A stretch of 64,000 nt of DNA from Candidatus Oxydemutator sp. (GCA_965203445.1 OZ241883.1:1184001-1248000); one strand, 5' to 3'; counted from the stretch's first letter, positions 13,374 to 39,462 are shown. Notes: generated by a model not told the origin, from the letters alone. Made by a program: numbers and translations.

Positions 13374-13460
13374 ATGAGTAATCAACAAAATGAGCAGAGA
13401 AGGGCTGCCAGAACGGGAGGGTTTTCAAACAGTACCCACATCGTTCATGTCGCCGACTGA
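13374..13460 (+). pseudogene. 5' stub of a gene truncated by the IS3 element
   Basis: GGAGGAG RBS and ATG at 13374. After 28 codons the in-frame TGA is the first triplet of the IS end. Confidence 0.45.
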
Positions 13461-13496
13461 ACTGCCCCGACTTTTCCGGAGACTGGTTTATGAGAG

Positions 13497-14916: not shown

Positions 14917-15029
14917 TATGGCGCTACTATACCACCACCAACATTGATGGCGCCAACACGGGATACGCTTAATTTTATCAGGGTTGCATGAAACTGGCGT
15001 ATATAATTCGCGGTCGGCACGATGAGCAG

Positions 15030-21400: not shown

Positions 21401-21787
21401 GAATTATATCTACCTGATGACTTACGAAATTCGGCAAAGCACTATTGCCTATGGCTCTATCTCAACTCTTCCTTTGTTTGGTTGTATAGAGAAATCACAG
21501 GTAGAAAGAATCTTGGGGGAGGCTTGTTGAAGGCCGAGGCAACGGATATGAAAGCATTGCCTGTTGATTTTGACTTTGATTTTGGCAAGGACGCAAAAAA
21601 GGTGTTTAATAGTATCCGAGATAGAACACCAATGCCCGTTTTGGAGGAAATTCATACGAAGGATCATATTCTCATAGACGAAATAGTGGCTAACTATTTT
21701 GGTTTTACAGATATGCAAGGAACCATTAGAGAAACTCTATCTGAACAGGTTAATTTTCGTCTGAACAGAGTGCGCCCCCAACACTGA
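18425..21787 (+). CDS. Type IIG (Eco57I-like) restriction-modification enzyme / N6-MTase with C-terminal TRD
   Basis: Motifs PFLNGGLF, GSYYTPREIV, DPAVGSGAF and VIGNPPY. The start overlaps the helicase stop. The TRD region is AT-rich after about 20680. Confidence 0.9.
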   Translation: MADKQALQALFAAAYDRDRWLKQLHDIFAGRLEEFAAPHALPAKEGEDAPPRHYLGNLTTADGKKLGIFEIPVGTNIRLARNRVQLRNLVARQVQEHTLNGALAVYPDADNRWRFSYIAVTGKLDEKGAITKEETAHKRYTYLLGEGMQTRTAVDRFVALPTPPILEQLDYAFATEPLNKVFYQELYHWYERAKLHVVFPNDEREEEDTHVSTSLIRLLTRLLFIWFMKEKELINQDFFVLDKVRHMIDWNRESSYYKAILQNLFFATLNREIPKRRFRTTNAKGKPTGNNYLVTNVYRYERYFKGMKKAEIIKLFAQTPFLNGGLFECLDRDADEEKQRVYEKDRTIRKERKEKRAIRMDGFSDHDKNRLRVPNDLFFNDDEEQPGLINLLSRYQFTVEESMPLDADVALDPELLGLVFENLLASYNPETEQTARKASGSYYTPREIVSYMVDESLKAYFAQATDVADTKINRLFLPPQAGKDSTTGAASELTENETTALIQAIDTIKIIDPAVGSGAFPMGILQRLVQILGIVDPENKRWKKRQTDIIDKLPDTESREQARKEVETIFSEKNRFNDFGRKLYLIEKCIHGVDIQPIACQIAKLRFFISLTIEQKPTDDPHDNRGIKPLPNLETRFVAADTLLGLDRPAQRTLGQTDAVNRLERELNANRERHFRITTRKSKMACWKKDKELRNQLATELKQAGFPATNADKIARWDPYDQNASAAWFDPAWMFGVKGGFDVVIGNPPYVESRNSLLPNELKNSYGKQVLSDWKETLPRGSDLLIYFYARSSKLLKRDSSYGCFITQNAWLSTDYGKKFQKFSIGKLSFQKIVDTSSKFFLDTKSQNINAVITFFTTKPLQTIEYGVADSNMTVASMKNIKAKQTMKWGHLFSMPQFFADILSKMSANAGTSNTIKFGQGLNFPLQELNKVGAKIPIIVKTSWFVAKSADGLILQANRKKEKIPALILPRGVGNRHYCTFNLCRAFSYSHVELYLPDDLRNSAKHYCLWLYLNSSFVWLYREITGRKNLGGGLLKAEATDMKALPVDFDFDFGKDAKKVFNSIRDRTPMPVLEEIHTKDHILIDEIVANYFGFTDMQGTIRETLSEQVNFRLNRVRPQH

Positions 21788-21931
21788 GTGCAAATCACTT
21801 GGGTGGCCAAGCCCATTAAGTCCACCAACACCACCGACACCAGCGCCCAAGAAACCAAAATCAACCACCTCGTATATAATCTCTACAACCTGACCCCAAA
21901 AGAAATCGCCGCATTGGAGCAGAAAAAATGA
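21788..21931 (+). repeat. Type IIG C-terminal tail remnant, leader type A copy 1
   Basis: In frame with the IIG gene after its TGA: ...DTSAQETKINHLVYNLYNLTPKEIAALEQKK*. The stop overlaps the next ATG. Confidence 0.8.
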
Positions 21932-23295
21932 ACAAACCAGCCAAGGTATTCATCACCTATTCACATCGCAATAAAGACGCGAGGGAAAAACTGAGCGAGC
22001 GCCTTGCGGTGATGGAGAAAAATGGGGAGATAGAAATCTGGCACGATAACGAAATACTCCCGGGCGACAGGTGGCGAGAAGAGATCTCCAAGAATCTTGC
22101 CGGTTCAGATATTCTGCTTCATCTTACTTCCGCGGCCAGCCTTGCCTCCGAAAACTGCAACAGAGAACTGACCGAAGCACTGCGAAGTGAGGAAAGGATA
22201 CGTAGGATTCCCATCATCCTCGAAGCTTGCGACTGGAAGCACGAACATGATCTCAGTCAGATTGAGGCACTTCCCGACAAAGGCAAACCTATCAACGAGT
22301 GGAAACCTAAGAGCAAAGGTTGGCAAAGTGTAGTCGACGGCCTACGCAAAGCTATCCAGAAAACCCGCCAGCTCATGCAGGAAGAGCAAAGTGAAGCACA
22401 GGCTTATTTGATGCTGCAAAATGGCAATTTTTTTGCGATATTAGGGCAACTGGAAGACGCAATAAACACTTATTCACAAGCCATTAAGATCAAATCAGAT
22501 TTTGCCGATGCCTATTGCAATCGCGGCATTGTTCATGCCAAGAAAGGCGACCATGACCAAGCCATCCGAGACTACAACCAAGCCATTGAACTAAACCCCG
22601 ATTTTGCCGAGGCCTATTACAATCGCGGCATTTCCTGCGAGAAGCAGGATAACCATAACCAAGCCATCCAGGATTACAGTAAAGCCATCGAACTAAAGCC
22701 CAGTTATACCGAGGCCTATAACAATCGCGGCGTTGCCTACGAGAAGCAAGGCAACCTTAACCAAGCCATCCAGGATTACAGTAAGGCCATTGAACTAAAT
22801 CCCAATTTTGCCAACTATTATTTCAATCGCGGCCTTGCCTACGAGAAGCAAGGCAACCTTAACCAAGCCATCCAGGATTGCAGTAAAGCCATTGAACTAA
22901 ATCCCGATTATGCCGAAGCCTATAACAATCGCGGCCTTGTCTACGAGAAGCAAGGCAACTTTAACCAAGCCATCCAGGATTACAGTAAGGCCATTGAACT
23001 AAATCCCAATTATGCCGATGCCTATTGCAATCGTGGCACTACTTACTTTGAACAGGGTGATTTTGACCAAGCCATCCGAGACTACAACCAAGCCATTGCG
23101 CTCCAGCCAGATTTTGCCGAGGCCTATTGCAACCGAGGTATAGTTTGGTTGTGCAAGCAAGCATGGAATGAAGCCAAGTCAGATTTGGAGACCGCCAAGG
23201 AAAAGGGCATGAACATTGCCAAGCGAATGTCTGACTTTGTAGAGAAATACCAGAGCCAACTACCGGAGGACATCATAGATATACTGACCGAATAA
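21928..23295 (+). CDS. TIR domain-TPR repeat protein (about 8 TPRs)
   Basis: VFITYSH, WHD.EILPG and SENCNRE (TIR Glu), followed by 34-aa AYxNRG repeats. Confidence 0.92.
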   Translation: MNKPAKVFITYSHRNKDAREKLSERLAVMEKNGEIEIWHDNEILPGDRWREEISKNLAGSDILLHLTSAASLASENCNRELTEALRSEERIRRIPIILEACDWKHEHDLSQIEALPDKGKPINEWKPKSKGWQSVVDGLRKAIQKTRQLMQEEQSEAQAYLMLQNGNFFAILGQLEDAINTYSQAIKIKSDFADAYCNRGIVHAKKGDHDQAIRDYNQAIELNPDFAEAYYNRGISCEKQDNHNQAIQDYSKAIELKPSYTEAYNNRGVAYEKQGNLNQAIQDYSKAIELNPNFANYYFNRGLAYEKQGNLNQAIQDCSKAIELNPDYAEAYNNRGLVYEKQGNFNQAIQDYSKAIELNPNYADAYCNRGTTYFEQGDFDQAIRDYNQAIALQPDFAEAYCNRGIVWLCKQAWNEAKSDLETAKEKGMNIAKRMSDFVEKYQSQLPEDIIDILTE

Positions 23296-23318
23296 GGCTT
23301 CTCCTTTCATTGCCCCCT

Positions 23319-23544
23319 CCCTCACCCGGCCTGCGGCCACCCTCTCCCAGAGGGAGAGGGTTTGGTTGACAGGAGTATCCCCACATAGGCCACCTTCATC
23401 CGCTTGGTGGACGCTATAATAGCCGCCAAATCCACCAATCCAACCGCCGACACCAGCCCCCAAGAAACCAAAATCAACCACCTCGCATATCAACTCTACA
23501 ACCCGACCCCGAAAGAAATCGCCGCTGTGGAAGACAAAACATGA
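23319..23544 (+). repeat. REP-like palindrome plus IIG-tail leader type A copy 2
   Basis: ccctcacccggcctgcggccaccctctcccagagggagaggg, then FIRLVDAIIAAKSTNPTADTSPQETKINHLAYQLYNPTPKEIAAVEDKT* with an ATGA overlap. Confidence 0.85.
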
Positions 23545-24875
23545 ATAATCAGACCGACAAAAACCAATTAGAAACAGTGCTGGAAATCATCAACCGCCTC
23601 GCCAAAGAATCGGTTAGCGGTGACTACATTTATCGTGGCGAACCCAAATGCTACGAGAAAGTATCATCCCGCCTCTACAGAGAAGAATGTAAGGATATAA
23701 AGGTTGATGGCTTTGACATTGAGGTTGTACAACAGGAAATACTAAAAGACGCTAAGCAATACACCACGCTGACAGATAAACTCGAAATTCTATCCGAACT
23801 CCAGCACTATGGCGGTAATACCAACCTGATAGACTTCACCACTGATTACCTGATCGCCCTTTTCTTTGCCTGTAACAGTTTGCTTGGCAAAGATGGTAAA
23901 GATGGCAGGGTGATCTTGCTGGAAAATACAGGCGAGTCTATTAACCAACCTCGAAATCCGCTCAATCGCATCATTGCCCAGAAGAGTAGATTCATCCGCC
24001 CGAAGCAAGGCTTCATTGAACCGAAAAAATATAAGGTCATTAAGATTTCAAAAGAGCTCAAGCCGCACATCTTGACGCACCTGCGAAAATCTCACGGCAT
24101 CTCCACGGAAACCATCTATAACGACCTACATGGATTCATAAGAAACCGAAGCATCCACCAAAGTGCCTACATAGAGTTCTATCGGGCATTTACCTATCAA
24201 GACAAAGGCGATAATGATGAGGCGATTAAACACTATACCGAAGCCATTAGACTCAATCCGAATTTAGTTGAGGCCTATAACAATCGCGGCCTTGCTTACT
24301 ATAGGAAAGATGACTACGACCAAGCCATCCAGGATTACAGTAAAGCCATTGACCTAAATCCTAATTATGCCAAAGCCCATTACAGTCGCGGCATTGTTTA
24401 CTATAGAAAAGGCGAACTTGATGAAGCCTTCCAAGACTTCACCCGAGCTATTGAACTACAGCCAGATTTTACCGATGCTTATTACAACCGCGGCGTTGCT
24501 TACTCTAGCAAAGGTGAATTTGATGAAGCTATCAGAGACTACAACCAAGCTATTGCGCTCAATCCAGATCATGCCGAAGCCTATAACAACCGTGGTGCTG
24601 CTTACGATAAGAAAGGTAATTTTGATAAAGCTGCCGAAGACTACAACCAAGCCATTACGCTCCAGCCAGACAATGCTGTTGCCTATTTCAACCAAGGTAC
24701 AGTCTGGTTGCGCAAGCAGGCATGGGATGCAGCCAAGTCAGATTTGAAGGCCGCCAAGGAAAAGGGCGCAGACATTGCCGAGCTATTTTCCAATGACTAT
24801 GGCAGCGTTTCAGCCTTTGAAGAGAGATACCATATTCAACTACCAGCGGACATCAGAGATATGCTGACCGCATAA
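23541..24875 (+). CDS. FRG domain-TPR repeat protein (about 6 TPRs)
   Basis: IYRGE, LQHYGGNTNLIDFT, ALFFAC and RIIAQKS, followed by TPRs and the same C-cap as the TIR-TPR genes. Confidence 0.9.
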   Translation: MNNQTDKNQLETVLEIINRLAKESVSGDYIYRGEPKCYEKVSSRLYREECKDIKVDGFDIEVVQQEILKDAKQYTTLTDKLEILSELQHYGGNTNLIDFTTDYLIALFFACNSLLGKDGKDGRVILLENTGESINQPRNPLNRIIAQKSRFIRPKQGFIEPKKYKVIKISKELKPHILTHLRKSHGISTETIYNDLHGFIRNRSIHQSAYIEFYRAFTYQDKGDNDEAIKHYTEAIRLNPNLVEAYNNRGLAYYRKDDYDQAIQDYSKAIDLNPNYAKAHYSRGIVYYRKGELDEAFQDFTRAIELQPDFTDAYYNRGVAYSSKGEFDEAIRDYNQAIALNPDHAEAYNNRGAAYDKKGNFDKAAEDYNQAITLQPDNAVAYFNQGTVWLRKQAWDAAKSDLKAAKEKGADIAELFSNDYGSVSAFEERYHIQLPADIRDMLTA

Positions 24876-24892
24876 GGATTTCCATTTCATTA

Positions 24893-25073
24893 CCCCTCCC
24901 CCGGCCTTCGGCCACCCTCTCCCAGAGGGGGAGGGTTTGGCTGATAGGAATATCCGCTGTGAAGGATAGCCACAATCAGGGAGGATAGGCTACTATAATC
25001 AAACAAAACTTGACTACCTAATCTACCGAAGCACAATCTCAGCCAAGCCGAAATCGCCACTTATGGAGAAAAA
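24893..25073 (+). repeat. REP-like palindrome plus leader type B
   Basis: Palindrome at 24893-24935, then aatcagggaggataggctactataatcaaac...gccgaaatcgccacttatggagaaaaa. Confidence 0.8.
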
Positions 25074-26579
25074 ATGAACGAACCGGCCAAACTGTTCATC
25101 ACCTATTCGCATCGGGACAAAGACGCGAAGGACAAACTGATCGAGCGTCTTGCGGTGATGGCCCACAATGGGGAGATAGAAACTTGGCACGACAACGAAA
25201 TTCTCCCAGGCGACCAATGGAAGGAAAAAATCTCCGACCGTCTCGCCGGTTCGGATATTCTGCTTTATCTTACTTCCGCGGCCAGCCTTGCCTCCGAAAA
25301 CTGCAACAAGGAACTGACCGAAGCACTGCAAAGCAGGGGAAGGATACGTACGATTCCCGTCATCCTTGAAGCTTGCGACTGGCAGGAACATAAGCTCAGT
25401 CAGTTTGAGGTGCTCCCCCACAAAGGCAACCCCGTCAACGAGTGGAAGCCTGAGAGCAAAGGTTGGCAAAATGTAGTCGAAGGCATACGCAAAGTTATCC
25501 AGGAAATCCAGGCTATCCAGGCAACCCGCCGGCCCATGCAAGAAAAGCAAAGTGAAATACTGGCTTATTTGATGCTGCAAAATGGCAATTTTTTTGTGAT
25601 GTTGGGGCAACCAGCAAACGCAATAGCCGCTTACTCACAAGCCATCAAGATCAAACCGGATTTTGCCGCAGCCTATAATAATCGCGGCGCCGCATACGAT
25701 AAGAAAGGTAAATTTGATGAAGCTATCGAGGACTTCAACCAAGCCATTGAACTGAACCCCAATCATGCTGAGGTCTACTACAATCGCGGCATTGCTCATG
25801 GCAAAAAAGGCAACTATGACCAAGCCATCCGAGACTGCAACAAAGCCATTGCGCTCCGGCCAAGTGATGCCGATACCTATAACAATCGCGGCATTGTCTA
25901 TGAAAAGCAAGGCAACCCTAACGCAGCCATCCAGGATTACAGTAAAGCCACTGAACTAAATCCCGATTATGCCGAGGCCTATTACAATCGCGGCATTGCT
26001 CATGGTAAAAAAGGCGACTATGACCAAGCCATCCAAGACTTCGACAAAGCCATTGAACTAAACCTGAATTATGCCGGGACCTATAACAATCGCGGCGTTG
26101 TCTACGAGAAGCAAGGCAACCATGACCAAGCCATCCGAGACTACAATAAAGCCATTGCGCTAAACCCCAATTTTGCCGAGGTCTATTGCAATCGCGGCGT
26201 TATCTATAAGAAACAAGGCAACTCTAATCAAGCCATCCAGGATTTCAGTAAAGCCATTGAACTAAATCCCAATTTTACCGGGGCCTATTACAATCGCGGC
26301 CTTGCTCATGGCAAAAAAGGCGACTATGACCAAGCGCTCCGAGACTTCAACCAAGCCATTGAACTACACCCTAATTATGCCAAAGCCTATTTCTACCGAG
26401 GCATGGTCTGGTTGCTCAAGCAAGCATGGGATAAAGCCATGTCAGATTTGAATACCGCCAGGGGAAAGGGCCTGAATATTGCCGAGCTGTTTTCCAGCGC
26501 CTTTGGCAGCGTTCCTGCCTTTGAACAGAAATACCGTATCCAACTACCGCAGGACATCAAAGATATGCTGACCGCATGA
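25074..26579 (+). CDS. TIR domain-TPR repeat protein (about 9 TPRs)
   Basis: Close paralogue of 21928..23295, with SENCNKE. Confidence 0.92.
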   Translation: MNEPAKLFITYSHRDKDAKDKLIERLAVMAHNGEIETWHDNEILPGDQWKEKISDRLAGSDILLYLTSAASLASENCNKELTEALQSRGRIRTIPVILEACDWQEHKLSQFEVLPHKGNPVNEWKPESKGWQNVVEGIRKVIQEIQAIQATRRPMQEKQSEILAYLMLQNGNFFVMLGQPANAIAAYSQAIKIKPDFAAAYNNRGAAYDKKGKFDEAIEDFNQAIELNPNHAEVYYNRGIAHGKKGNYDQAIRDCNKAIALRPSDADTYNNRGIVYEKQGNPNAAIQDYSKATELNPDYAEAYYNRGIAHGKKGDYDQAIQDFDKAIELNLNYAGTYNNRGVVYEKQGNHDQAIRDYNKAIALNPNFAEVYCNRGVIYKKQGNSNQAIQDFSKAIELNPNFTGAYYNRGLAHGKKGDYDQALRDFNQAIELHPNYAKAYFYRGMVWLLKQAWDKAMSDLNTARGKGLNIAELFSSAFGSVPAFEQKYRIQLPQDIKDMLTA

Positions 26580-26602
26580 GGATTCCCATTTCATTGCCCC
26601 CT

Positions 26603-26828
26603 CCCTCACCCGGCCTGTGGCCACCCTCTCCCAGAGGGAGAGGGTTTGGTGAAGAAGAATATCCCCTGCATAGGCCATCTTCATCTGCCTGATGGACGTT
26701 ATAATAGTGCTATGCCCACCAAAGCTGGCTGCCGACACCAGCCTCCGAAAAACCAAAATCAACCACCTCATCTATCAACCCTGCAACCTGACCCCGAAAG
26801 AAATCGCCACCGTGGAGAAACAAAGTGA
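26603..26828 (+). repeat. REP-like palindrome plus IIG-tail leader type A copy 3
   Basis: Palindrome at 26603-26644, then gccgacaccagc...aaccaaaatcaaccacctc...gaccccgaaagaaatcgcc. Confidence 0.82.
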
Positions 26829-27625
26829 GCACACAACCAATTGAAGCAGTTGCTGAATACCTTAAGCAAGTCTCAACAATAAAACAGCAGTGGCAGTCTC
26901 CTGTATTAGTCTTTCGCGGCCAGGAAAATGAAGAGTGGAGCTTGGAATCTTCGGCGGAACGCCGCCTGAAGAAGTCCGAGAGCAGAAAAAGAATAAACAA
27001 ACAGTTATTCATTAAGTATCACAAAGACCTGTTAAAGGAATGCAAGCTGAAGAACTATGACAGGCGGGAAGGCAAATCATTGCATGAACTGGAACTCCTG
27101 GCCGATCTCCGACACCATGGCGCCGCTACTTGCCTCATGGATTTCACGCGTAGTGCTCTCGTTGCTCTATGGTTTGCCTGCGAAAAATCAGAGGCGAATG
27201 GAAAAGTGTTTGTTGTCAACACCGCCAATAAAAAAACCTTTTCGGGAATAGAACCCGACGATATAGACAGCCAATCAATAGAAGACATTCTCAGATTTCA
27301 AACTCGTAAAAAGAAGCGAGTCAAACTACAGGAAGAAAGAACATCCAAAACAGTACAAAGCAGACGTTTTTGGCACTGGGCACCAGCACGCCTGAACGAA
27401 CGCATAACGGCGCAACATTCGCTGTTCCTCTTCGGCCCCCCTACCTCTGGAGAACCGGAGGCAGGAACGATACTTATAGAATCAGGGGAAAAAGCGCAAA
27501 TAAGGCGGGAACTGGAAGAAATACACGGGATCAATGAAGAGTCTCTCTTCCCGGATTTTGCAGGTTTTGCCTACACCCAGCGATACCGTGTCTGGGGTCA
27601 ATACTTGGACAAAAGCTTGGCATAG
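26825..27625 (+). CDS. FRG domain protein without TPRs (possibly 3'-truncated)
   Basis: Motifs VFRGQ, RHHGAATCLMDFT, ALWFAC, RITAQHSLF and GINEESLFPD. Confidence 0.85.
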   Translation: MSTQPIEAVAEYLKQVSTIKQQWQSPVLVFRGQENEEWSLESSAERRLKKSESRKRINKQLFIKYHKDLLKECKLKNYDRREGKSLHELELLADLRHHGAATCLMDFTRSALVALWFACEKSEANGKVFVVNTANKKTFSGIEPDDIDSQSIEDILRFQTRKKKRVKLQEERTSKTVQSRRFWHWAPARLNERITAQHSLFLFGPPTSGEPEAGTILIESGEKAQIRRELEEIHGINEESLFPDFAGFAYTQRYRVWGQYLDKSLA

Positions 27626-27639
27626 AGTGATATTCTCCA

Positions 27640-27757
27640 CAAGAGATGGCCACAATCAGAGTAGACAGGCTGCTATAATCAAACATAAGGTTGACTACCC
27701 AATCCAACCAATATTACTATCTCGGCCAAGCCGAAACCGCCGCTTAATGGAGGAACA
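27640..27757 (+). repeat. Leader type B containing an extended -10 (TGCTATAAT)
   Basis: Homologous to 24960-25073 and 33238-33351. Confidence 0.75.
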
Positions 27758-29017
27758 ATGAACGAACCGGCCAAACTGTTCATCACCTATTCGCATCGGG
27801 ACAAAGACGCGAAGGACAAACTGAGCGAGCACCTTGCGGTGATGGCCCGAAATGGGGAGATAGAAACTTGGCACGACAACGAAATTCTCCCGGGCGACCA
27901 ATGGAAGGAAAAAATATCCGACCGTCTCGCCGGTTCGGATATTCTGCTTTATCTTACTTCCGCGGCCAGCCTCGCCTCCGAAAACTGTAACAAGGAACTG
28001 GTCGAAGCGCTGCAAAGTGGGGAAAGAATACAGCCAATTCCCATCATCCTTGAAGCTTGCGACTGGAAGCAACATAAGCTCAGTCAGTTTGAGGTGCTCC
28101 CCCACAAAGGCAAACCCGTCAACAAGTGGGAGCCTGAGGGCAAAGGCTGGCAAAGCGTAGTTGAAGGCATACGCAAAGTTGCCCAGGAAACCCGCCGGCC
28201 TATACAAGAAGAGCATAGTGAACCACTGGCTGACGCGCTGCTGGAAAATGGTAATTTTTTTATGATGCTGGGGCAGCTGGCAAGCGCGATAGACGCTTAT
28301 TCACAAGCCATTAAGATCAAGCCGGATTTTGTCGAAGCCTATCGCAACCGCGGCGCTGCCCACGGTATGAAAGACGAACATGACCAAGCCATCGAGGACT
28401 TCACCCGCGCTATCGAACTACAGCCAGATTTTGCCAAAGCCTATTGCAACCGCGGCATCGTCTACAGCAGGACAGGCGAACAGGGCCAGGCCGTCCGAGA
28501 CCTCACCCGCGCGATTGAACTACGGCCGGATTTTGCCAGAGCCTATAACAGCCGCGGTGTTGCTTACGGCAGGAAAGGTAAATTTGATGAAGCTATCAGA
28601 AACTTCGACCAGGCCATTGCGCTCCAGCCAGATTATGCCGAGGCCTATTACAATCGCAGCATTACCTACGAGAGGCGAGGCAACCTTGACCAGGCCATCG
28701 AGGATTATAATAAAGCCGCTGATACCTATATCAAGCGCGGCAACGCTCATGGCAGGAAAGGCGACTATGGCCGAGCCATTCGGGACTACAACCATTCCAT
28801 TGCGCTCAATTCAGATGATGCTGCCGCCTATTGCAATCGAGGTATGTTCTGGTTGCTCAAGCAAACATGGGATAAAGCCAAGTTGGATTTGAGGACCGCC
28901 AGGGACAAGGGCGCGGACATTGCCGAACTGTTTTCCAATGACTATGGCAGCGTTTCAGCCTTTGAAGAAAAATACCATCAACTGCCGGAGAACATCAAAA
29001 ATATGCTGACCGCATGA
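27758..29017 (+). CDS. TIR domain-TPR repeat protein (about 7 TPRs, one shortened)
   Basis: Paralogue with SENCNKE. YNKA-ADTY lacks the 7-aa inter-repeat segment. Confidence 0.92.
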   Translation: MNEPAKLFITYSHRDKDAKDKLSEHLAVMARNGEIETWHDNEILPGDQWKEKISDRLAGSDILLYLTSAASLASENCNKELVEALQSGERIQPIPIILEACDWKQHKLSQFEVLPHKGKPVNKWEPEGKGWQSVVEGIRKVAQETRRPIQEEHSEPLADALLENGNFFMMLGQLASAIDAYSQAIKIKPDFVEAYRNRGAAHGMKDEHDQAIEDFTRAIELQPDFAKAYCNRGIVYSRTGEQGQAVRDLTRAIELRPDFARAYNSRGVAYGRKGKFDEAIRNFDQAIALQPDYAEAYYNRSITYERRGNLDQAIEDYNKAADTYIKRGNAHGRKGDYGRAIRDYNHSIALNSDDAAAYCNRGMFWLLKQTWDKAKLDLRTARDKGADIAELFSNDYGSVSAFEEKYHQLPENIKNMLTA

Positions 29018-29036
29018 GGACTTCCATTTTATTATT

Positions 29037-29204
29037 CCCTCACCCGGCCTTCGGCCACCCTCTTCCGTTCTTTATTCCCTCTCCCCCTCTGGGGGAGAAC
29101 CTTCATCTTCCCCCTCTCCCTCTGGGAGAGGGCCGGGGTGAGGGCCCTTGCATAACTCCTCACCCTCACCCGGCCTGTGGCCACCCTCTCCCAGAGGGAG
29201 AGGG
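29037..29204. repeat. Composite REP-like element: inverted pair of palindromes around a ttgcataact core
   Basis: ccctctccctctgggagagggccggggtgaggg...ccctcacccggcctgtggccaccctctcccagagggagaggg. Confidence 0.85.
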
Positions 29205-29234
29205 TTTGGTTGACAGGAATATCCCCTGCAAAAG

Positions 29235-30023
29235 ATGAACCGGCTTTCTGAACAAGTGGACAGTTATTACAGTTGGCTGCGGGCGAAGACGCATCTGCCC
29301 GCGGCAGGCGACAACGGCTGGCATTTGATTTCCACTCCTTTCCTGGGGTTGTTTAACGACACCATAGAGATATACGCCAGAAAGCGGGGCGACAACATCG
29401 TTCTCTCGGATGACGGCAAAACCTTGCACGACCTGGAACTGACGGGGATTTCCTTTTCCCGCTCATCCGCCCGCAAAGAGGCGCTGGAGCAGGTGTTGCT
29501 CAACTACGGCATTACGGAAAACCAGGGCGAATTGACGGTGCACGCGCAAGAGACCAATTTTCCGCAAAAGAAACACGACCTGATTCAGGCGATGCTGGAG
29601 ATCGGAGAGCTCCAGGTGCCGGCAAAGCATACCGTCGCCAAAGTTTTCAAGGACGACGTGCGCGCTTATCTGGATGAGCAGGAAATTGTCTATACGCCCC
29701 AGTTTATTTCCAAGGGTGCCGTCGGCATTGAGTTCACGTTTGATTTTCAAGTGGCCTACCGGGAAAGGGAAATTGTGTTGAAGTGCTTCAACGGCATCAA
29801 CAAAACCTCGTTGTCCAGTTTTTTGTTCATGTGGAAGGACATCAGTCCATTCAGGCGGGAGCTGACCGACAAGGACATATCGGGGCTTGCCTTCGTCAAT
29901 AACGAAGACAAGAACATCAAACGCGAATTTTTGGACGCCCTGAAGTCCGGCGGCGCGGATTACATCCTGTGGCAGGACCGACACGCGCCCGCAAACCTTG
30001 CAAAACTGAAAGAAGCCGCATAA
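29235..30023 (+). CDS. DUF1828/DUF1829 domain protein
   Basis: YYSWLR...ISTPFL..FNDTIEIY...LSDDG.TL.DL, and G..GIEFTFDF. Confidence 0.8.
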   Translation: MNRLSEQVDSYYSWLRAKTHLPAAGDNGWHLISTPFLGLFNDTIEIYARKRGDNIVLSDDGKTLHDLELTGISFSRSSARKEALEQVLLNYGITENQGELTVHAQETNFPQKKHDLIQAMLEIGELQVPAKHTVAKVFKDDVRAYLDEQEIVYTPQFISKGAVGIEFTFDFQVAYREREIVLKCFNGINKTSLSSFLFMWKDISPFRRELTDKDISGLAFVNNEDKNIKREFLDALKSGGADYILWQDRHAPANLAKLKEAA

Positions 30024-30109
30024 AAGACAGGCTTGAGGAAGCTGTTTCATTACCCCCCTCTCCCTCCGGAAGAGGGCTTCTTCATTCTCCCTCTCCCCAT
30101 CAAAAACAT

Positions 30110-30187
30110 AATCTATAATCGAACAAAAGCCGACCACCCAATCCAACCAGAGCACAATCTCAGCCGAACCGAAATCACCGTTAATGG
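30110..30187 (+). repeat. Leader type B copy, preceded by a degenerate palindrome at about 30054-30098
   Basis: ctataatcgaacaaaa...agcacaatctcagccgaaccgaaatc matches 24993-25058. Confidence 0.75.
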
Positions 30188-30225
30188 TAATCTACAATAA
30201 ACGGGCATTTTGAGGCCGACGAACC

Positions 30226-31029
30226 ATGTCGCACCGAGATCGCCCCTTCGACGTCCAACCTATTCCTGCCGCCGGTCTGTCGGACCTCAATCTGGTTGGG
30301 TTTGAAAACGAGTATCTGCCCCGGGCGTTTTCCGATGAGGTGCTGGCCGCCAATGATCGCAGTCTGCATCAGCAACTCGCCGCCACAAAAATGATCGCAG
30401 CCGGCGCGCAGCCGGACGCCGATCAGGTCGCCGCGACTGTGCTCGGCCTTCTCACCATCGGCAAGAACCCGCAGGATTTTCTGCCCGGCGCCTACGTGCA
30501 ATTTCTCAGGATCAACGGCACCGAACGCAGCGACGACATCAGCGACGACGAGACCATGCGCGGCGCGATTCCCGACCTGCTCCGGCGCGTAGACGACAAG
30601 TTGACGGCGCACAACCGCGTCGCGGTCGCCATCGCCACCGGCACGGTCGAACGACGCACCGCGCTATATCCCGTCGAGGCGCTGCAACAAATCATCTGGA
30701 ACGCCGTCATGCACCGGACATATGAGGCGACCAACGCGCCGATCCATATTTACTGGTTCGACGACCGCATCGAGATCACCAGTCCCGGCGGCGCGTTTGG
30801 CATGGTCGCCGCCGACAACTTCGGGCAACCCGGCATCGTTGATTACCGCAACCCCAATCTGGCGGACGCGATGAAAACGCTCGGCTATGTCCAGCGCTTT
30901 GGCGTGGGAATATCCATCGCCAAACGGCAGTTGGCGGACGCGGGACATCCGCCGCCCGAGTTCGATATTTCCGCCAATCACGTGCAGGTCACAATCCGGC
31001 GCGTCGCACCCGCAGGGATGAAAAAATGA
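30226..31029 (+). CDS. RecG-C/HATPase_c_4-type ATP-binding protein, apparently lacking its N-terminal AlbA_2 domain
   Basis: YP.EALQQII.NAVMHRTY, FDDRIEITSPGG, YRNPNLA and GYVQRFGVGI. Confidence 0.72.
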   Translation: MSHRDRPFDVQPIPAAGLSDLNLVGFENEYLPRAFSDEVLAANDRSLHQQLAATKMIAAGAQPDADQVAATVLGLLTIGKNPQDFLPGAYVQFLRINGTERSDDISDDETMRGAIPDLLRRVDDKLTAHNRVAVAIATGTVERRTALYPVEALQQIIWNAVMHRTYEATNAPIHIYWFDDRIEITSPGGAFGMVAADNFGQPGIVDYRNPNLADAMKTLGYVQRFGVGISIAKRQLADAGHPPPEFDISANHVQVTIRRVAPAGMKK

Positions 31030-32042
31030 CGGTTCCCGTACTGACTTTCTTCAACCACAAGAGCGGGGTCGGCAAAACTTCGCTGGTTTATCACTTGTCG
31101 TGGATGCTGTCCGACCTCGGCTATCGAGTGCTCGCCTGCGACTTGGATCCGCAGGCCAACTTGAGCGCCGCGTTTCTGGACGAAGATCGGCTGGAGGAGA
31201 TTGGGCGCAAAGACACGGCTGTGGCAGCGGGGAAGACCATCATGCAATGCGTCCAACCGCTGACGGAAGCGGGCGATATTCGGCCCCCGCAACTTGTCCA
31301 AATCACGCCCGAGTTGCACCTGATCCCGGGAGATTTGGCCGTGGCCGGTTTTGAAGAAACCCTGTCGGCGGAATGGCCCAACGCATCGGGTTCCGGCAAT
31401 CTGTATCGTCCGTTTCGCATCCTGACCGCGTTCTCGACCGTTATGCGGGAGGGCGCGGAGCAGATGGACGCCTCGGTTGTCATAGCCGACGTCGGCCCCA
31501 ATCTCGGCGCCGTCAACCGCTCGGCGCTGATAGCGACCGACCACGTCGTCGTGCCGTTGGGCGCGGACCTGTTTTCCCTGCAAGGCTTGCGCAATCTCGG
31601 CCCGACCCTGCATCGGTGGCGAGAGGATTGGAGAAAGCGAAAAGAACGCTGGCCGCAACCCGATTTTCCCTTGCCCGCCGGAGGCATGAAACCCATCGGC
31701 TATACCGTGCAACAACACGGCATACGCCTAAGCCACCCGATAATGGCGTATGACAAGTGGGTGAATCAAATGCCGGAGGAGTACGCCCGCAACCTGCTCG
31801 GAGACGACCAAGGCCCGTATCCCCCGACGCCGACCGAAGACAAAGAACACGCCCTTGCCACCGTCAAGCACTACCGCAGCCTGGTGCCGATGGCACAGGA
31901 AGCGCGCAAGCCCATCTTTCATCTCACCCCGGCCGACGGCGCCATCGGCAGCCACGCCGCCGCCCGCAACGACGCCCGCCGGGACTTCAAGCTTCTGGCC
32001 GGGAAAATAGCGGCGCGCCTCAATCTCCCCCACCCCGCCTGA
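31026..32042 (+). CDS. ParA/AAA_31 family ATPase (defence-island type)
   Basis: Motifs FNHKSGVGKT, DLDPQANL and DVGPNLG. ATGA overlap with the previous gene. Confidence 0.88.
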   Translation: MTVPVLTFFNHKSGVGKTSLVYHLSWMLSDLGYRVLACDLDPQANLSAAFLDEDRLEEIGRKDTAVAAGKTIMQCVQPLTEAGDIRPPQLVQITPELHLIPGDLAVAGFEETLSAEWPNASGSGNLYRPFRILTAFSTVMREGAEQMDASVVIADVGPNLGAVNRSALIATDHVVVPLGADLFSLQGLRNLGPTLHRWREDWRKRKERWPQPDFPLPAGGMKPIGYTVQQHGIRLSHPIMAYDKWVNQMPEEYARNLLGDDQGPYPPTPTEDKEHALATVKHYRSLVPMAQEARKPIFHLTPADGAIGSHAAARNDARRDFKLLAGKIAARLNLPHPA

Positions 32043-32079
32043 AGCCACCGCCGCAAAGAAATGAACAATGCTGTTTTCT

Positions 32080-32315
32080 CCCTCTCCCTCTCTGGGAGAG
32101 CGCCTTCCCATTCTCCCTCTCCCTCTGGGAGAGCGCCTTCCCATTCCCCCTCTCCCTCTGGGAGAGCGCCTTCCCATTCCCCCTCTCCCCCTGGGAGAGC
32201 GCCTTCCCATTCCCCCTCTCCCTCTGGGAGAGGGCTGGGGTGAGGGCCGTTCAGGGCCATTGCATAACTTGGCACCCTCACCCGGCCTGCGGCCACCCTC
32301 TCCCAGAGGGAGAGG
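32080..32315. repeat. 33-bp tandem amplification of the palindrome (four units) followed by a complete inverted pair
   Basis: gggagagcgccttcccatt at 32094, 32127, 32160 and 32193, then ggggtgaggg...ttgcataact...ccctcaccc. Confidence 0.92.
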
Positions 32316-32885
32316 GGTTGGTAGATAGGACTATCTCCTAAGAATCATCTATCACCGGCGCTTTGCGGGCTGCGACACATAATTCCCCGATCAAAATGGA
32401 ACTCTGCACCAGTGGCGGCCCTTCCCTCGAAAGCCGCATTCTCTGGTAGATACCCTGTTTCTCCTCGCCGGCGCCGGCGATGGGTACGGCTGTGCCTATG
32501 GCCGCAGCAATGCAGCAGCCACGAAACATGCGATGGCGATGAGCAGGGCGGTCAAGTTCTCTGTAGGCGCACGGTTTGAAAGCCGCCATCTTTGCGCTGC
32601 AATCGTTGGATAAGCCTGTCAGCCAGTGTGTCTGTATCGGTGTTTGGCATCTTTTCTATGGGAAAAGGGGGGAACTGATATACCGCGATTCGTAGCGAGT
32701 TCGATATTTTTCGTGCGAGAGCGTGGCTGGCACCTGAAAGGATGGAAGGTAAGACATGCCCCCCCTGACTACTCCGTTGCCGGAGAGGGCCCCTTGGGCC
32801 CTTGTCATCAGGGGAGGACTTGAGCTGCCTTATTATATCTACCATACAGAATTTCCTACAAGACGACAGCGCACAAGTCCATCTT

Positions 32886-33131
32886 TCATCTCGCCACGGC
32901 GCCGGTTGCCGCTCCGATCATTTGATCTTTTTGCGATGCGACGTCGGCACCTTTCGACGTGCCGAGATCAAAAACGATGGAGGTGTCGCAGCTTCGTGAA
33001 AGTGTCCCGGCCAAATCCTGGTCTACGAGCCGGCGCATGTACTCGGCAATGGAAATACCAAGGGCGGCCGCACGCACACGGACTTTCGTATGCGACTCCG
33101 AATGGAGGGATATTTGGGTGCGAAACACCAT
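32886..33131 (-). CDS. Second copy of the RHH antitoxin, with no toxin gene
   Basis: Near-identical to 14653..14916 (AAALGISIAEYMRRLVDQDLAGT). Confidence 0.72.
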   Translation of the reverse strand: MVFRTQISLHSESHTKVRVRAAALGISIAEYMRRLVDQDLAGTLSRSCDTSIVFDLGTSKGADVASQKDQMIGAATGAVAR

Positions 33132-33191
33132 TATGGCGCCACTATACCACCACAGCATTGATGGCACCAACAAAGAATATAAGCCATTTTC

Positions 33192-33351
33192 TCCCTCACC
33201 CGGCCTGTGGCCACCCTCTCCCAGAGAGAGGGGGTTTGAAGGGCGGCTATAATCAGGGGGGACAGGCTACTATAATCAAACAGAATTGACCGCCCGATCC
33301 AACCAGCACTACTATCTCAACCGAGCCGAAATCGCCACTTGTGGAGAAAAA
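33192..33351 (+). repeat. REP-like palindrome plus leader type B
   Basis: ccctcacccggcctgtggccaccctctcccagagagaggggg, then aatcagggggacaggctactataatcaaac. Confidence 0.8.
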
Positions 33352-36300
33352 ATGAACAAACCGGCCAAACTGTTCATCACTTATTCGCATCGGGACAAAG
33401 ACGCGATAGACAAACTGAGCAAGCACCTTGCGGTGATGGTCCGAAATGGGGAGATAGAAGCTTGGCACGACAACGAGATTCTCCCGGGCGACCGATGGAA
33501 GGAAAGAATCTCCGACCGTCTCGCTGATTCGGATATTCTGCTTTACCTTACTTCCGCGGCCAGCCTTGCCTCCGAAAACTGCAACAAGGAACTGACCGAA
33601 GCACTGCAAAGCGGGAGAGGCATACGTACAATTCCCGTCATCCTTGAAGCTTGCGACTGGCAGAGACATGAGCTCAGTCAGTTTGAGGTGCTTCCCCACA
33701 AAGGCAAACCTGTCAACAAGTGGGAGCCTGAGAGCGAAGGTTGGCAAAGTGTAGTCAAAGGCATACGCAAAGCTACCCGGGCTATTCAGGCAACTAGCCG
33801 GCCAATGCAAGAGGGGCAAGGCGAACCACTGGCTTATTTGATGCTGGAAAAAGGCAATTTCTTTATGATGCTAGGGCAGTCGGCAAATGCAATAAACGCT
33901 TATTCACAAGCCATTAAGATCAAGCCGGATTTTGTCGAAGCTTATTGCAACCGCGGCGTTGTTTACGGTAAGAAAGGTAATTTCGATGAATCTATCGCAG
34001 ATTTCAACCAAGCCATTGCACTCCAGCCAGATTATGCCGGGGTTTATTGCAACCGCGGCAATGCTTATTTGGAACAAGGTAATTTCGACCAAGCCATTCA
34101 AGATCTCACCCGAGCTATTGAACTACAGCCAGATTTTGCTGCTGCCTATTACAACCGCGGTAATACCCACAATAGGAAAGGCAAATATGACCATGCCATC
34201 CAAGACTTCACCCGAGCTATTGAACTACGGCCAGATTTTGCCATAGCCTACCACAACCGCGGTGCTGCTTACGGTAAGAAAGGTAAACTTGATGAGGCTG
34301 TCGCAGACCTCAGCCAAGCCATTGCGCTCCAGCCAGATGATGCTATTGCCTATGGGAACCGAGGTACGGTCTGGTTGCTCAAGCAGGCATGGGACAAAGC
34401 CAAATCGGATTTGAAGGTCGCCAGGGAGAAGGGCCTGAACATTGCCAAGCTGTTTTCTGACGCCTTTGGCAGCATTTCAGACTATGAGAAGGAATACCAT
34501 ATCCGGCTGCCGCAGGACATCAGAGATCTATTGACCGCATATTCAAATATAAGCCAGCCGTTCCGTCCGAGAGCCAGAATACTGCAACTGCTTGGCGACG
34601 AGTTGATAGGGAATGCACGCTTGGCGATTTTTGAGCTGGTCAAGAACGCCTACGATGCGGATGCAAACGAGGTCGTCGTGACCCTCGATCTCGATCCCAG
34701 TCGGGAACCAACGATCACCATCCATGACGACGGCGAAGGCATGACGCTTGATACACTCCGGTCGGTCTGGCTGGTGCCAGGGAATGATTATCGTCAGAAA
34801 CAACGACAGTCGGACAGAAGGAGCCCCCGGCATCATCGTCTCCCGCTTGGGGAAAAAGGACTCGGCCGGTTTGCCGTTCACAAACTCGGGAATCTCATCC
34901 ACCTCGTGACGCGCGCCCGGGACGCAGGTGAATGTGTCGTCGAAATAGACTGGAACAAACTGATCGCTCAACCGTATCTCGACGAAGCCCCTGTAGCCAT
35001 ACAGGTTCGCCGCCCTGATTTTTTTACCAGAGAGAAAACCGGGACCCGGATTGAAGTCCGACAGTTGCGCACAAGATGGTCGAGAGGCGAAGTGCGACGT
35101 CTGCACAATCAGATCACGTCTATTTGCTCGCCGTTTGAAGAACCAGGCGGATTCCAGGCCACGTTGCGCGTCCCCGGCGGCGAAGACTGGCTGAAAGGCC
35201 TGCCGGACGTTTCCGAGATTCTTGATCGCGCCATCTGGAAGTTCTCATTCCGTATCGAAAATGACAACTTCGACTGGACTTATGAATTCCGCCAAGTTCC
35301 GAGGATCAATCTCGAAGGACGCAAAATCGAGAAATCCGGAGATCGTCTGAAGCTTCCCCCGCGATCCGGAGACGACCGGATGGAAAAGAACATAGTGGCC
35401 GGAGAAAGAGATTTCGAAGGTATCGGCTCCATCACCGGGGAGTTCTACGTATACGACCGGGGTCAGGAGGTTCGCAAGCGGATGCCGAACATCCAGCAGC
35501 TGGAGAAATATCTCGACGAGGTGGGCGGCGTGCGGGTCTATCGGGACGGCATCCGAGTGTACAACTACGGCGAGCGCGGCGACGACTGGCTCGGTCTCGA
35601 TCTTCGTCGCGTGAACGTGCCAACGCGCCGGATCAGCCGCAACATCATTCTGGGAGCGATACACCTCTCTTTGAAAGAATCAACTGGCCTTATGGAAAAA
35701 ACCAACCGGGAAGGATTTGTGGAAAACGAACCCTGCCGTCAATTGCAACGAATCGTCCTCGGTGCCTTGGGCGCCCTGGAAGCAGAACGTCAAATAGATA
35801 AAGAACACATCAGACAGGTGACCGGTAAACCCGACGACCCCACGACCAGGAGAATCGAGAAGCCGATACGAGAACTGAGGCGCGCGCTCAAACGACAGGG
35901 ATTGCAGGACAAATTCGAGGGCTATGTAGCCAGAATAGAGAACAACTACCAGGACATGCAGGAAACGCTGCTTGTCGCGGGCATGTCCGGCCTGAGTCTG
36001 GCCATCGTATTCCACGAAGTGGAACGCGGGGTGCGGGCACTTCACCAGATACTATCCGAGGGCACCGACATGGAGAGCGCGGCTCGCCAGGCGCGGGATC
36101 TCGTGCACACTCTCGACGGTTTTGCGGCGTTGCTCAGACGGGGCAGTAAAAAACGCCACAGCGGGCGGGAGCTTGTCGCCGCTGCACGTCAAAACAGCAT
36201 TCTCCGAATCCGGCATCACCAAGTCAAGTTCGTCTGTCCGTTGCTTGAGGGGAACGATGCCGGCTTTCATTCCCGGTTCGTGTTCGGTCTCGTGCTGGGG

Positions 36301-36660
36301 GCGCTGACCAACCTCGTAGATAATGCTTTCTACTGGCTCCGGGTAAGGTGGCCGGACGTTCCCGGGCCGGAGGACGACTTCGAACGAAAACTCTACATCG
36401 GCCTCTCGCGTGATTTCGAGGCGGGGCCGGCCATCGTGGTTGCGGACAATGGTGCTGGTTTTCAGGGAGACGATCCCGAGAACCTGGTGAGGCCATTCTT
36501 CACGCGCAAGCCCGAAGGTATGGGCCTCGGTCTGTATTATGCGAACTTGGCGATGGAGCTGAACGGAGGACAGCTTGCATTCCCGCAGCCCGGGGAAGTC
36601 GAGCTTCCCGATGAGTTCGACGGCGCGACCGTCGCCCTGATCTTCAAGGAGTCACGATAA
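33352..36660 (+). CDS. Fusion protein: TIR-TPR + MORC/GHKL ATPase + histidine kinase
   Basis: MNKPAK TIR, about 6 TPRs and the cap LPQDIRDLLTA. Then FRPRARILQLLGDELI, ELVKNAYDADA, DDGEGM and GEKGLGRFA. C-terminal FHE, NLVDNA, DNGAG and PFFTRKPEGMGLGL. Confidence 0.9.
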   Translation: MNKPAKLFITYSHRDKDAIDKLSKHLAVMVRNGEIEAWHDNEILPGDRWKERISDRLADSDILLYLTSAASLASENCNKELTEALQSGRGIRTIPVILEACDWQRHELSQFEVLPHKGKPVNKWEPESEGWQSVVKGIRKATRAIQATSRPMQEGQGEPLAYLMLEKGNFFMMLGQSANAINAYSQAIKIKPDFVEAYCNRGVVYGKKGNFDESIADFNQAIALQPDYAGVYCNRGNAYLEQGNFDQAIQDLTRAIELQPDFAAAYYNRGNTHNRKGKYDHAIQDFTRAIELRPDFAIAYHNRGAAYGKKGKLDEAVADLSQAIALQPDDAIAYGNRGTVWLLKQAWDKAKSDLKVAREKGLNIAKLFSDAFGSISDYEKEYHIRLPQDIRDLLTAYSNISQPFRPRARILQLLGDELIGNARLAIFELVKNAYDADANEVVVTLDLDPSREPTITIHDDGEGMTLDTLRSVWLVPGNDYRQKQRQSDRRSPRHHRLPLGEKGLGRFAVHKLGNLIHLVTRARDAGECVVEIDWNKLIAQPYLDEAPVAIQVRRPDFFTREKTGTRIEVRQLRTRWSRGEVRRLHNQITSICSPFEEPGGFQATLRVPGGEDWLKGLPDVSEILDRAIWKFSFRIENDNFDWTYEFRQVPRINLEGRKIEKSGDRLKLPPRSGDDRMEKNIVAGERDFEGIGSITGEFYVYDRGQEVRKRMPNIQQLEKYLDEVGGVRVYRDGIRVYNYGERGDDWLGLDLRRVNVPTRRISRNIILGAIHLSLKESTGLMEKTNREGFVENEPCRQLQRIVLGALGALEAERQIDKEHIRQVTGKPDDPTTRRIEKPIRELRRALKRQGLQDKFEGYVARIENNYQDMQETLLVAGMSGLSLAIVFHEVERGVRALHQILSEGTDMESAARQARDLVHTLDGFAALLRRGSKKRHSGRELVAAARQNSILRIRHHQVKFVCPLLEGNDAGFHSRFVFGLVLGALTNLVDNAFYWLRVRWPDVPGPEDDFERKLYIGLSRDFEAGPAIVVADNGAGFQGDDPENLVRPFFTRKPEGMGLGLYYANLAMELNGGQLAFPQPGEVELPDEFDGATVALIFKESR

Positions 36661-38980: not shown

Positions 38981-39462
38981 CTTTCGGGAGCCGTCCGCAC
39001 GCGCTGTTTCGGGAAGCAATGACGGCCACCTTTGGAGACCGGAACCGTTTTGCATCCGTCGGTATTCTCTTCCAGATACCTCCTGATGGTCTCCTCGTCT
39101 CGCGTCTCACATTCCCAGATGACGAGAACCCGCCATCCGAGATCCCGCAATACCTCTTCGTTGCGACGATCCCGGGCGACGTTCTGCGCGAACTTCTCGG
39201 TCCAGAACGCAACGTGCGATTTGGGCGTGTATGCGTAGCGACATCCGCCGTGCCGGTGCCAGTAACACCCATGCACAAAAACAACCAGTCGGTGCTTAGG
39301 GAAAACCAGATCCGGACAACCTGGAATATCTTTCCTGTGTAAGCGGAAGCGGAGGCCGAGATTGTGGGCGACACGGCGGACGGCGATTTCAGGGGCGGTG
39401 TCCCGCCCTCTGATTCTCGACATATTCTCACTTCGTCTTTCGCTGCTTACTATATCTACCAT
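38977..39462 (-). CDS. vsr: Very short patch repair endonuclease
   Basis: RSENMSRIRGRDT.PE, PG.PDLV, FVHGCYWHRH and GWRVLVIWECE. Confidence 0.95.
   Translation of the reverse strand: MVDIVSSERRSENMSRIRGRDTAPEIAVRRVAHNLGLRFRLHRKDIPGCPDLVFPKHRLVVFVHGCYWHRHGGCRYAYTPKSHVAFWTEKFAQNVARDRRNEEVLRDLGWRVLVIWECETRDEETIRRYLEENTDGCKTVPVSKGGRHCFPKQRVRTAPER

Follow-up and report, generated by a model that had tools for sequence, protein, structure and literature searches.

A row of co-oriented genes of anti-phage type lies behind an Eco57I/PglX-like methyltransferase gene (hereafter, the methylase) of Candidatus Oxydemutator sp., and three of these genes are each preceded by a leader that similarity to full-length proteins shows to be a non-coding relic of the C-terminal tail of Eco57I/PglX-type methyltransferases. 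The array is contained in a stretch of 64,000 nucleotides (nt) from this organism (GCA_965203445.1 OZ241883.1:1184001-1248000; G000:C1:1184001-1248000 in our numbering), which is referred to here as the window and from whose first letter positions are counted. The genome is complete in a single contig of 2.38 Mb, and the array occupies 1.205-1.217 Mb. With a rough probability of 0.6, we propose that homologous recombination at the conserved tail, combined with local duplication, built the array behind the methylase. Domain calls are based on Pfam, defence-family calls on PADLOC models, and the palindrome, trailer and leader families on a repeat finder.

A first, sequence-only reading of the window had described seven leaders of two types, A and B. 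All seven were located, the type A copies translate as described, and the leaders precede genes in which Pfam identifies TIR-TPR, FRG-TPR, FRG and HATPase domains (Table 1). The type A copies, at 21788-21931, 23389-23544 and 26674-26828, form a single repeat family (D11) at 21830-21935, 23443-23548 (87%) and 26728-26833 (74%). The ATGA overlap with the next gene, claimed for two type A copies, is present in A1 and A2, where it includes the ATG at 21928 and 23541, respectively. A3 keeps GTGA at the GTG start at 26825, and a 1-nt gap just upstream shifts the frame of this relic. GGAG is found in five of the seven array leaders and GGAA in one. When compared with a profile of the C-terminal 58 residues in 33 full-length Eco57I/TaqI_C proteins, the type A leaders show significant similarity to the tail, with E values of 2.4e-17 for A2, 1e-11 for A1 and 2.6e-5 for A3, and the similarity spans up to 49 residues. 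Across the whole genome, the profile detects A1-A3 only, with nothing else below E 2.9. A 51-residue query from A2 matches the C-terminus of a 1174-amino-acid (aa) Eco57I/TaqI_C protein (open frame of 1180 aa) in a same-genus genome, with 50% identity and E 1.1e-9; this search matched 2 of 61 genomes, the present one counted. The query also matches the C-termini of proteins with 1200- and 1217-aa open frames (E 1.5e-8 and 1.1e-4), and the wider search of the phylum matched 3 of 401 genomes, again including this one. Leader copies are confined to the array: the type A query yields three real copies among 12 genome-wide matches (the other nine at E of at least 0.6), and the type B query four among seven (the other three at E of at least 0.29). 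The attribution of the leaders to type IIG tails, as made from the sequence at first sight, thus holds for type A and is only suggested for type B.

Relics of this kind recur in other phyla. An alignment of three methylases retrieved 80 related loci, mostly from uncultured Poribacteria, Caldilineaceae, Latescibacterota, Nitrospinales, Dehalococcoidia and others, and 42 of these loci hold 45 full-length tails. A further 25 tail matches fall in frames shorter than 600 aa, of which 19, distributed over 12 loci, are in frames of at most 110 aa and are regarded as relics. In nine of the 19 cases, the start of an open reading frame (ORF) of at least 100 aa coincides with the final base of the relic frame or precedes this base by 4 nt; three others have an ORF within 20 nt, one has an ORF at 57 nt, and six have no such ORF. 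For full-length tails, overlap by the next ORF of at least 100 aa is seen in 6 of 45. The genes led by relics encode TPR, DUF488, AAA_15/AAA_21, Zeta-toxin-like kinase and FRG proteins as well as proteins of no family. At, or a few bases from, a full-length tail, the next gene encodes a TIR protein in L046, L053, L060 and L061 and an FRG-TPR protein in L041. Within the phylum of the window itself, the profile search of 401 genomes gave 12 tail matches in 11 genomes besides the present one, eight of them in frames of at least 757 aa and four in short frames. The latter comprise one gene that looks frameshifted, two isolated relics on short contigs, and one relic that a 207-aa ORF follows after 12 nt.

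The end of the tail coincides with the point where homology breaks. Between Poribacteria loci, DNA similarity amounts to approximately 80% across the gene body, disappears in the recognition part, recovers to approximately 84% in the tail and stops at the tail end, past which the loci hold different genes. The tail and FRG gene of L041 align with the relic and FRG gene of L033. One Nitrospinales genome holds both L017 and L022, the latter a paralogous methylase locus. The first relic of L017 (r1), together with the first 77 nt of the TPR gene behind it, matches the L022 tail junction with 92.8% identity over 153 nt, and the 72-nt relic itself is 97% identical to the paralogue's tail versus 86% to the adjoining resident tail. 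Judged by these identities, the r1 junction is a copy of the paralogous locus in the same genome. The flanks of L017 and L021 are 93-96% identical, and their arrays differ in genes and in size (8.2 versus 2.2 kb). The tail had been proposed, along with a palindromic repeat, as an anchor for recombination; the homology breaks at the tail end and the junction copied from a paralogue are consistent with the former, whereas the palindrome has not kept this role (see below).

These junctions bear on an alternative in which each relic is the stump of a separately acquired helicase-methylase system, whose body was deleted while the parts required for expression of the downstream gene were kept, the tail having no role in recombination. 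Full-length methylase genes do occur in tandem, with three in L012 and two in L026. Moreover, tail-bearing frames of 138-480 aa in L018, L021, L031, L040 and L058 suggest progressive truncation, and at their 5' ends the relics begin at different positions of the profile, from 11 to 42. Such serial decay is nonetheless unlikely. A2 and A3, which begin at a common 5' boundary and match at 82% identity over 142 nt, stand before unrelated FRG genes; relics r1, r3 and r4 of L017 share an upstream unit of approximately 225-260 nt at 95-97% identity; and the relics are closest to one another or to a paralogue in the same genome. These likenesses show that the relics were copied after they had formed and were then joined to different genes. 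The three L017 relics in the repeated unit lie at 15353-15609, 18706-18985 and 19205-19487, and in this unit the last 25 or so tail codons directly continue a small ORF of about 60 codons.

Within the window, the array genes lie between the methylase and a GHKL ATPase gene. The TIR-TPR genes are 74-80% identical at the nucleotide level (78.7% for gene 3 versus gene 1) and have common trailers; gene 1 bears an A leader and genes 3 and 5 bear B leaders, with homology among genes 1, 3 and 5 beginning just 24-26 nt before the ATG. A block containing the end of TIR-TPR gene 1, the trailer, the repeat and A2 (22477-23538) corresponds to 25740-26824 at 78% identity, and the correspondence stops at both start codons. 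The FRG-TPR and FRG proteins are only 28% identical over 193 aa, and each has closer relatives, with identities of up to 58% and 44%, among Poribacteria and Caldilineaceae. Likewise, the HATPase_c_4/ParA pair is 64-71% identical to a Poribacteria pair (L054, L057), as against 42% and 50% to paralogues in its own genome. By these comparisons, the array is shown to be a mosaic and more than the duplication of one unit.

It is accordingly rather improbable that the array arose by plain tandem duplication of a unit of leader, TIR-TPR gene and trailer, the copies then diverging and occasionally having a domain replaced non-homologously, with the leaders as passive passengers. In a tree of window TIRs 1, 3 and 5 with 11 TIRs of other genomes, from which the fused TIR was left out, the window TIRs form one clade (support 100/99), and this clade, the identity and common trailers of the TIR-TPR genes, and the order TIR, FRG, TIR, FRG, TIR, which copying of a two-gene block would produce, all agree with such duplication. 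However, the FRG genes, the HATPase_c_4/ParA pair and the DUF1828/DUF1829 gene do not derive from the TIR-TPR unit, and each FRG gene and the pair have closer relatives in other phyla than here, so that duplication of a single unit is insufficient, as had been anticipated. The homology breaks at the tail end and the unrelated genes behind relics in other phyla also speak against it. The idea that genes were accreted in tandem behind the methylase is borne out in part: unrelated genes led by relics recur in several phyla, whereas the TIR-TPR copies are explained by plain local duplication.

The resident methylase itself bears a trace of exchange at its end. It is 46% identical to a same-genus homologue over residues 175-854, and the remainder differs, including the last 270 or so residues. 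Nevertheless, it retains a complete, divergent tail that aligns column for column with the standard tail, and this C-terminal and tail type is common to L010-L016 and L026. A1 follows directly after the methylase stop, in frame. A complete tail of its own, with A1 directly after the stop, implies that a new C-terminal module was placed before the remains of the old tail; on this alignment, A1 is the displaced second tail of the methylase. The same double-tail layout is found in L013, from a Chloroflexota genome. An origin of A1 as the methylase's own tail severed by a nonsense mutation was rejected, because the gene already ends in a complete tail of a different type, at the same point as its L010-L016 relatives. 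A second methylase paralogue, at G000:C1:524995-532651 (L090, 3996-11651), is 61% identical over 837 residues and has a tail of the divergent type; it is followed by a 1316-aa ORF without a Pfam family and has no SNF2 partner, array or relics.

The gene upstream of the methylase encodes an HKD nuclease fused to an SNF2 helicase, which scores highest with the PADLOC model 'HKD+Snf2' (4.4e-47), with DrmD ranking second and HmaA (2.4e-35) third. Most of the 80 related loci likewise have an HKD-SNF2 gene 5' of the methylase. The methylase matches the PADLOC model REase_MTase_IIG (8.7e-60), Pfam shows no TaqI_C in it, and a search with Pfam alone found no nuclease domain in its residues 1-400. A nuclease may be supplied by the adjoining HKD-SNF2 protein. 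The resident gene may encode a PglX-like methylase acting together with this nuclease-helicase, and not a genuine type IIG enzyme of a single chain.

These findings suggest the following mechanism. The host is a two-gene restriction-like system, composed of the HKD-SNF2 nuclease-helicase and the Eco57I/PglX-like methylase, with genes of anti-phage type embedded behind it. In this gene family, the final methylase codons often abut the next gene, stop and start codons sharing ATGA, and the tail codons for valine or leucine and the following glutamate form a GGAG ribosome-binding site. Owing to the shared ATGA and the GGAG in the tail, a downstream gene that is copied or moves with its start region would bring the methylase tail along, and the relic would persist because it supplies this start region. 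Since the tail is the sole conserved stretch between the target-recognition part and the accessory gene, it would also be a natural site for homologous recombination. Two processes would have contributed. Local duplication would have copied blocks that run from a TIR-TPR gene through its trailer and repeat to the following leader. Recombination between tail copies, whether resident, relic, paralogous or foreign, would have joined other genes or N-terminal domains to existing leaders, thereby adding the two types of FRG gene and the HATPase_c_4 gene with its ParA partner. The same process would have displaced the methylase's old tail, leaving A1 behind the new C-terminal module. More tentatively, and at somewhat less than even odds, the tail of PglX/Eco57I-type methyltransferase genes could be a general, recombinase-free docking site at which immune genes are captured, stacked and swapped, leaving relics behind.

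Several observations weigh against assembly by recombination at the tail. Relics are closer to relics of the same genome than to foreign tails, a pattern that local duplication explains no worse than import does, and the TIR clade indicates that the TIR-TPR copies arose locally. A1-A3 are only 82-87% identical to one another, so that recombination between them would be inefficient today, and this genome has no intact gene with an A-type tail. B1-B4 reach at best 0.9 bits against the tail profile, compared with a mean of 0.41 and a 95th percentile of 3.1 for the best match per shuffle of the B sequences. Public runs, which gave short contigs only, show no direct sign of ongoing recombination; none of the 15 joints listed, out of 56, is at a leader, and all those listed are in palindromes or TPR repeats, with sides of 20-29 nt. 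Metagenome scans with the FRG protein and a 26-nt leader A pattern gave no match. Numerous loci among the 80 belong to sponge-associated genomes that are related to one another, and the counts from these loci are therefore not independent. In draft genomes, short frames can be frameshifted full genes, as appears to be the case for the G302 match and perhaps for the first L087 relic. Finally, a scan for promoter-like sites was at chance (10 sites versus 10.1 expected); the scan for terminator-like sites gave 12 versus 18.5 expected. Pieces 92-99% identical to the array were found in runs labelled sponge metagenome, and many of the related genomes belong to Poribacteria and other uncultured lineages that are typical sponge symbionts.

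The type B leaders, B1-B4, at about the positions given in Table 1, constitute one family (nhmmer E 4.6e-22 to 1.7e-42) and retain the 3' end as first described. In local DNA alignments between A and B leaders, 5 of the 12 pairs exceed all 500 shuffles (z 4.0-6.4), and the other seven have z of 1.1-2.4. The type B leaders are thus probably older derivatives of the tail, a descent suggested at the DNA level only, with no protein-level signal. They have in common a TTGAC element and a -10-like element separated by 16-18 nt; as the B leaders are homologous, this pair is not independent among them.

Conservation of the 3' ends in both A and B leaders, the GGAG before most starts and the kept ATGA overlap could also be understood if the leaders were functional in themselves, as small translated ORFs or as selected regulatory 5' RNA that merely resembles the tail. 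There is little to recommend this explanation, since the relics have no start codons, A3 is frame-shifted and related strains carry 1-nt deletions inside A2, at 23503 and 23511 (in short contigs from public runs). In addition, the 5' truncations vary, and tail similarity over as many as 49 residues extends far beyond a regulatory motif.

A trailer and a palindrome (families D6 and D12) lie 3' of four units. With at most one mismatch, the palindrome core occurs at 43 sites in the genome, nine in window 21-34 kb and 34 outside it. The copies elsewhere have the same left arm and stand beside unrelated genes, including two isolated genes without a leader, one for TIR-TPR at 0.917 Mb and one for FRG-TPR at 0.044 Mb. 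As a repeat spread over the genome and enriched in the array, the palindrome is not an array-specific anchor, contrary to what had been proposed. No integrase is encoded near the array: the two PF00589 tyrosine recombinases of the genome are at 0.258 and 1.81 Mb, approximately 0.95 and 0.6 Mb away. The initial comparison with an integron can accordingly be retained as an analogy only. Palindromes separate most units and nine of the 43 genome copies lie within 13 kb, but a site-specific cassette system, integron-like or driven by a recombinase acting on the palindrome to insert and excise units, is scarcely credible, as both tyrosine recombinases are distant, the genome holds no repeat-associated Y1 transposase (PF01797), the palindrome occurs genome-wide beside unrelated genes, and relic arrays of other genomes lack it.

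Among known systems, embedded defence genes and the orphan modules of Rhs/CDI loci are, on our best reading, the nearest counterparts of the array, and integrons are not. Like an integron, the array is a one-directional row of single-gene cassettes with repeats between them; unlike one, it has no integrase nearby, its repeats belong to a genome-wide palindrome, and its units carry their own start regions. Thoeris loci can hold several ThsB TIR genes. The array resembles them in having several TIR genes in a row with ThsB-like PADLOC matches (5e-27 and 1e-28), and differs in that no ThsA was identified and its TIRs are fused to TPR and linked to a methylase system. At rhs and cdiA loci, a conserved stretch of the main gene is followed by units that are each headed by a fragment of that stretch, and homologous recombination at the fragment displaces or swaps units. 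Similarly, the three type A relics head downstream units, and A1 corresponds to a displaced tip behind an intact gene. However, at rhs and cdiA loci the fragment leads into another version of the main protein's C-terminal domain, whereas the fragment in the array is the very end of the main gene and is followed by complete, separate genes with their own starts. The rhs and cdiA modules at issue are orphan toxin-immunity modules behind these genes (PMC3967940).

Payne et al. (bioRxiv 10.1101/2024.01.29.577857) describe defence genes that are embedded in Hma, BREX and DISARM systems and in type I restriction-modification (R-M) systems, and hma is itself an insertion hotspot (PMC11232893). Those cases likewise comprise diverse, co-oriented defence genes inside or behind a helicase-methylase system; unlike them, the units of the present array carry a methylase-tail relic with a stop-start junction. 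The words recombination, remnant and truncated do not occur in the main text of that paper, which gives no mechanism or sequence footprint. The phage-defence-candidate (PDC) models of PADLOC matched here (PDC-S15, PDC-M24B) appear to stem from the same study, because the paper says that its candidates entered PADLOC. By PADLOC, the host system is not Hma: the HmaA model ranks third on the helicase, and HmaB and HmaC are both missing from the families listed for the methylase (the best 25 of 37 and of 50 matches) and for the ATPase. Target-recognition domains are exchanged and moved in type I and type IIG R-M genes (PMC3077401). In such genes, conserved stretches flanking variable parts are the sites of exchange, in line with the swapped C-terminal module of the window methylase; such shuffling takes place within one gene, whereas the conserved tail of the array also heads separate genes. 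The resident methylase shares the Eco57I-type gamma N6-adenine methyltransferase domain with type IIG enzymes. Type-2 BREX-related (BR) systems (PMC12839542) similarly combine an N-terminal HKD nuclease on an SNF2 helicase with a PglX-like N6-methyltransferase; unlike these, the complete genome encodes no DUF499 ATPase (PF04465) anywhere. No description of tail relics heading downstream genes was found in literature searches, and the supplements of the cited papers may bear on this.

The routes by which defence genes cluster, or embed in other defence systems, are largely unexplained, and the junctions described here carry a readable footprint, namely a dead methylase tail with a translational coupling signal. 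If assembly by recombination at the tail is correct, it provides a concrete, testable and integrase-free route to immune arrays, through exchange at a short conserved gene end. It also offers a search handle for new defence candidates, in the form of a short-frame tail match and the gene that follows, and the relic-led genes of other genomes already include unannotated proteins. If the tail is moreover a general docking site, this would explain embedding in helicase-methylase systems across phyla and would make the relics a genome-wide beacon. The comparison also shows that such units are exchanged among co-resident bacteria of different phyla, as represented by the sponge-linked genomes.

Table 1. 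Features of the array and its surroundings, with positions in the window
Feature	Position	Strand	Remarks
HKD (PLD) nuclease fused to SNF2 helicase	14988-18425	+	1145 aa; Pfam PLDc_2, SNF2-rel_dom, Helicase_C
Eco57I/PglX-like N6-adenine methyltransferase	18425-21787	+	1120 aa, intact; Pfam Eco57I PF07669 3.3e-29
Leader A1	21788-21931	+	relic of last ~37 codons of a standard methylase tail
TIR-TPR gene 1	21928-23295	+	455 aa; Pfam TIR_2 3.6e-17 and TPR; PADLOC ThsB-like 5.1e-27
Trailer, palindromic repeat (core 23340-23360) and 25-nt repeat flank	23296-23388	+	families D6, D10, D12
Leader A2	23389-23544	+	longest relic, 51 codons between stops
FRG-TPR gene	23541-24875	+	444 aa; Pfam FRG 5.5e-13 and TPR; PADLOC PDC-S15
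Leader B1	24937-25076	+	repeat flank, then decayed leader ending in GGAG and ATG; nhmmer E 4.4e-42
TIR-TPR gene 3	25074-26579	+	501 aa; Pfam
Leader A3	26645-26828	+	repeat flank and tail relic with 1-nt frame shift near end
FRG gene without TPR	26825-27625	+	266 aa; Pfam FRG 2.6e-19; PADLOC PDC-S15 6.8e-35
Leader B2	27617-27760	+	nhmmer E 2.1e-41
TIR-TPR gene 5	27758-29017	+	419 aa; Pfam
Trailer and palindromic repeat cluster	29018-29234	+	repeat flank abuts next start codon, without tail relic
DUF1828/DUF1829 gene	29235-30023	+	262 aa; Pfam; PADLOC PDC-M24B 3.4e-89
Leader B3 and ~40-nt spacer	30113-30225 (leader ~30113-30205)	+	5' end truncated; nhmmer E 4.6e-22
HATPase_c_4 gene	30226-31029	+	267 aa; Pfam; overlaps ParA-like gene
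ParA-like AAA_31 gene	31026-32042	+	338 aa; Pfam
Palindromic repeat cluster with 33-nt tandem units	32043-32340	+	families D8, D9
Leader B4	33216-33354	+	nhmmer E 1.7e-42
TIR-TPR fused in frame to GHKL ATPase (HATPase_c_3 ... HATPase_c)	33352-36660	+	Pfam
435-aa ORF of no assigned family	36660-37967	+	overlaps end of fused ATPase gene
C5 methylase	38027-39055	-	

The G+C content of the window flanks is 60-70% and falls to 42-62% at approximately 11-38 kb. The right flank, from about 39.7 kb, is 72-88% conserved in three same-genus genomes and the region at 4-11 kb is not conserved, which marks the low-G+C stretch as a variable island. In the last TIR-TPR copy, the alignment of 3' ends places a TAT codon at the usual stop, and the frame reads into the GHKL ATPase; either a genuine fusion protein or a recent mutation could account for this. 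In L017, a homologue of the GHKL ATPase is encoded as a gene of its own between the SNF2 and methylase genes, and the array may thus lie between two core genes. For the 435-aa ORF behind the fused gene, neither Pfam nor PADLOC gives a match, and homologues are absent from the 80 related loci and from the rest of the genome. Before the DUF1828/DUF1829 gene, positions 1-29 of the A-leader model match 29205-29234 with E 0.032.

The alternation of TIR and FRG genes extends over 21928-29017, and 7 of the 10 related loci with a TIR match also have an FRG gene within 10 kb (L053, L057, L060, L061, L067, L080 and L084). The TIR-TPR and FRG(-TPR) genes may function together, instead of each being a single-gene system of its own. 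On the 5' side of the helicase gene, 11050-14330 holds a D12-class adenine methylase, a 431-aa ORF without a family and a minus-strand insertion sequence (IS) integrase-core fragment. The segment 32338-33290, between the repeat cluster and B4, has a higher G+C content and contains a plus-strand ORF of 177 aa and three minus-strand ORFs of 83, 97 and 95 aa. These three have no Pfam match at E 0.01, and the 95-aa product, judged by eye, resembles a ribbon-helix-helix antitoxin.

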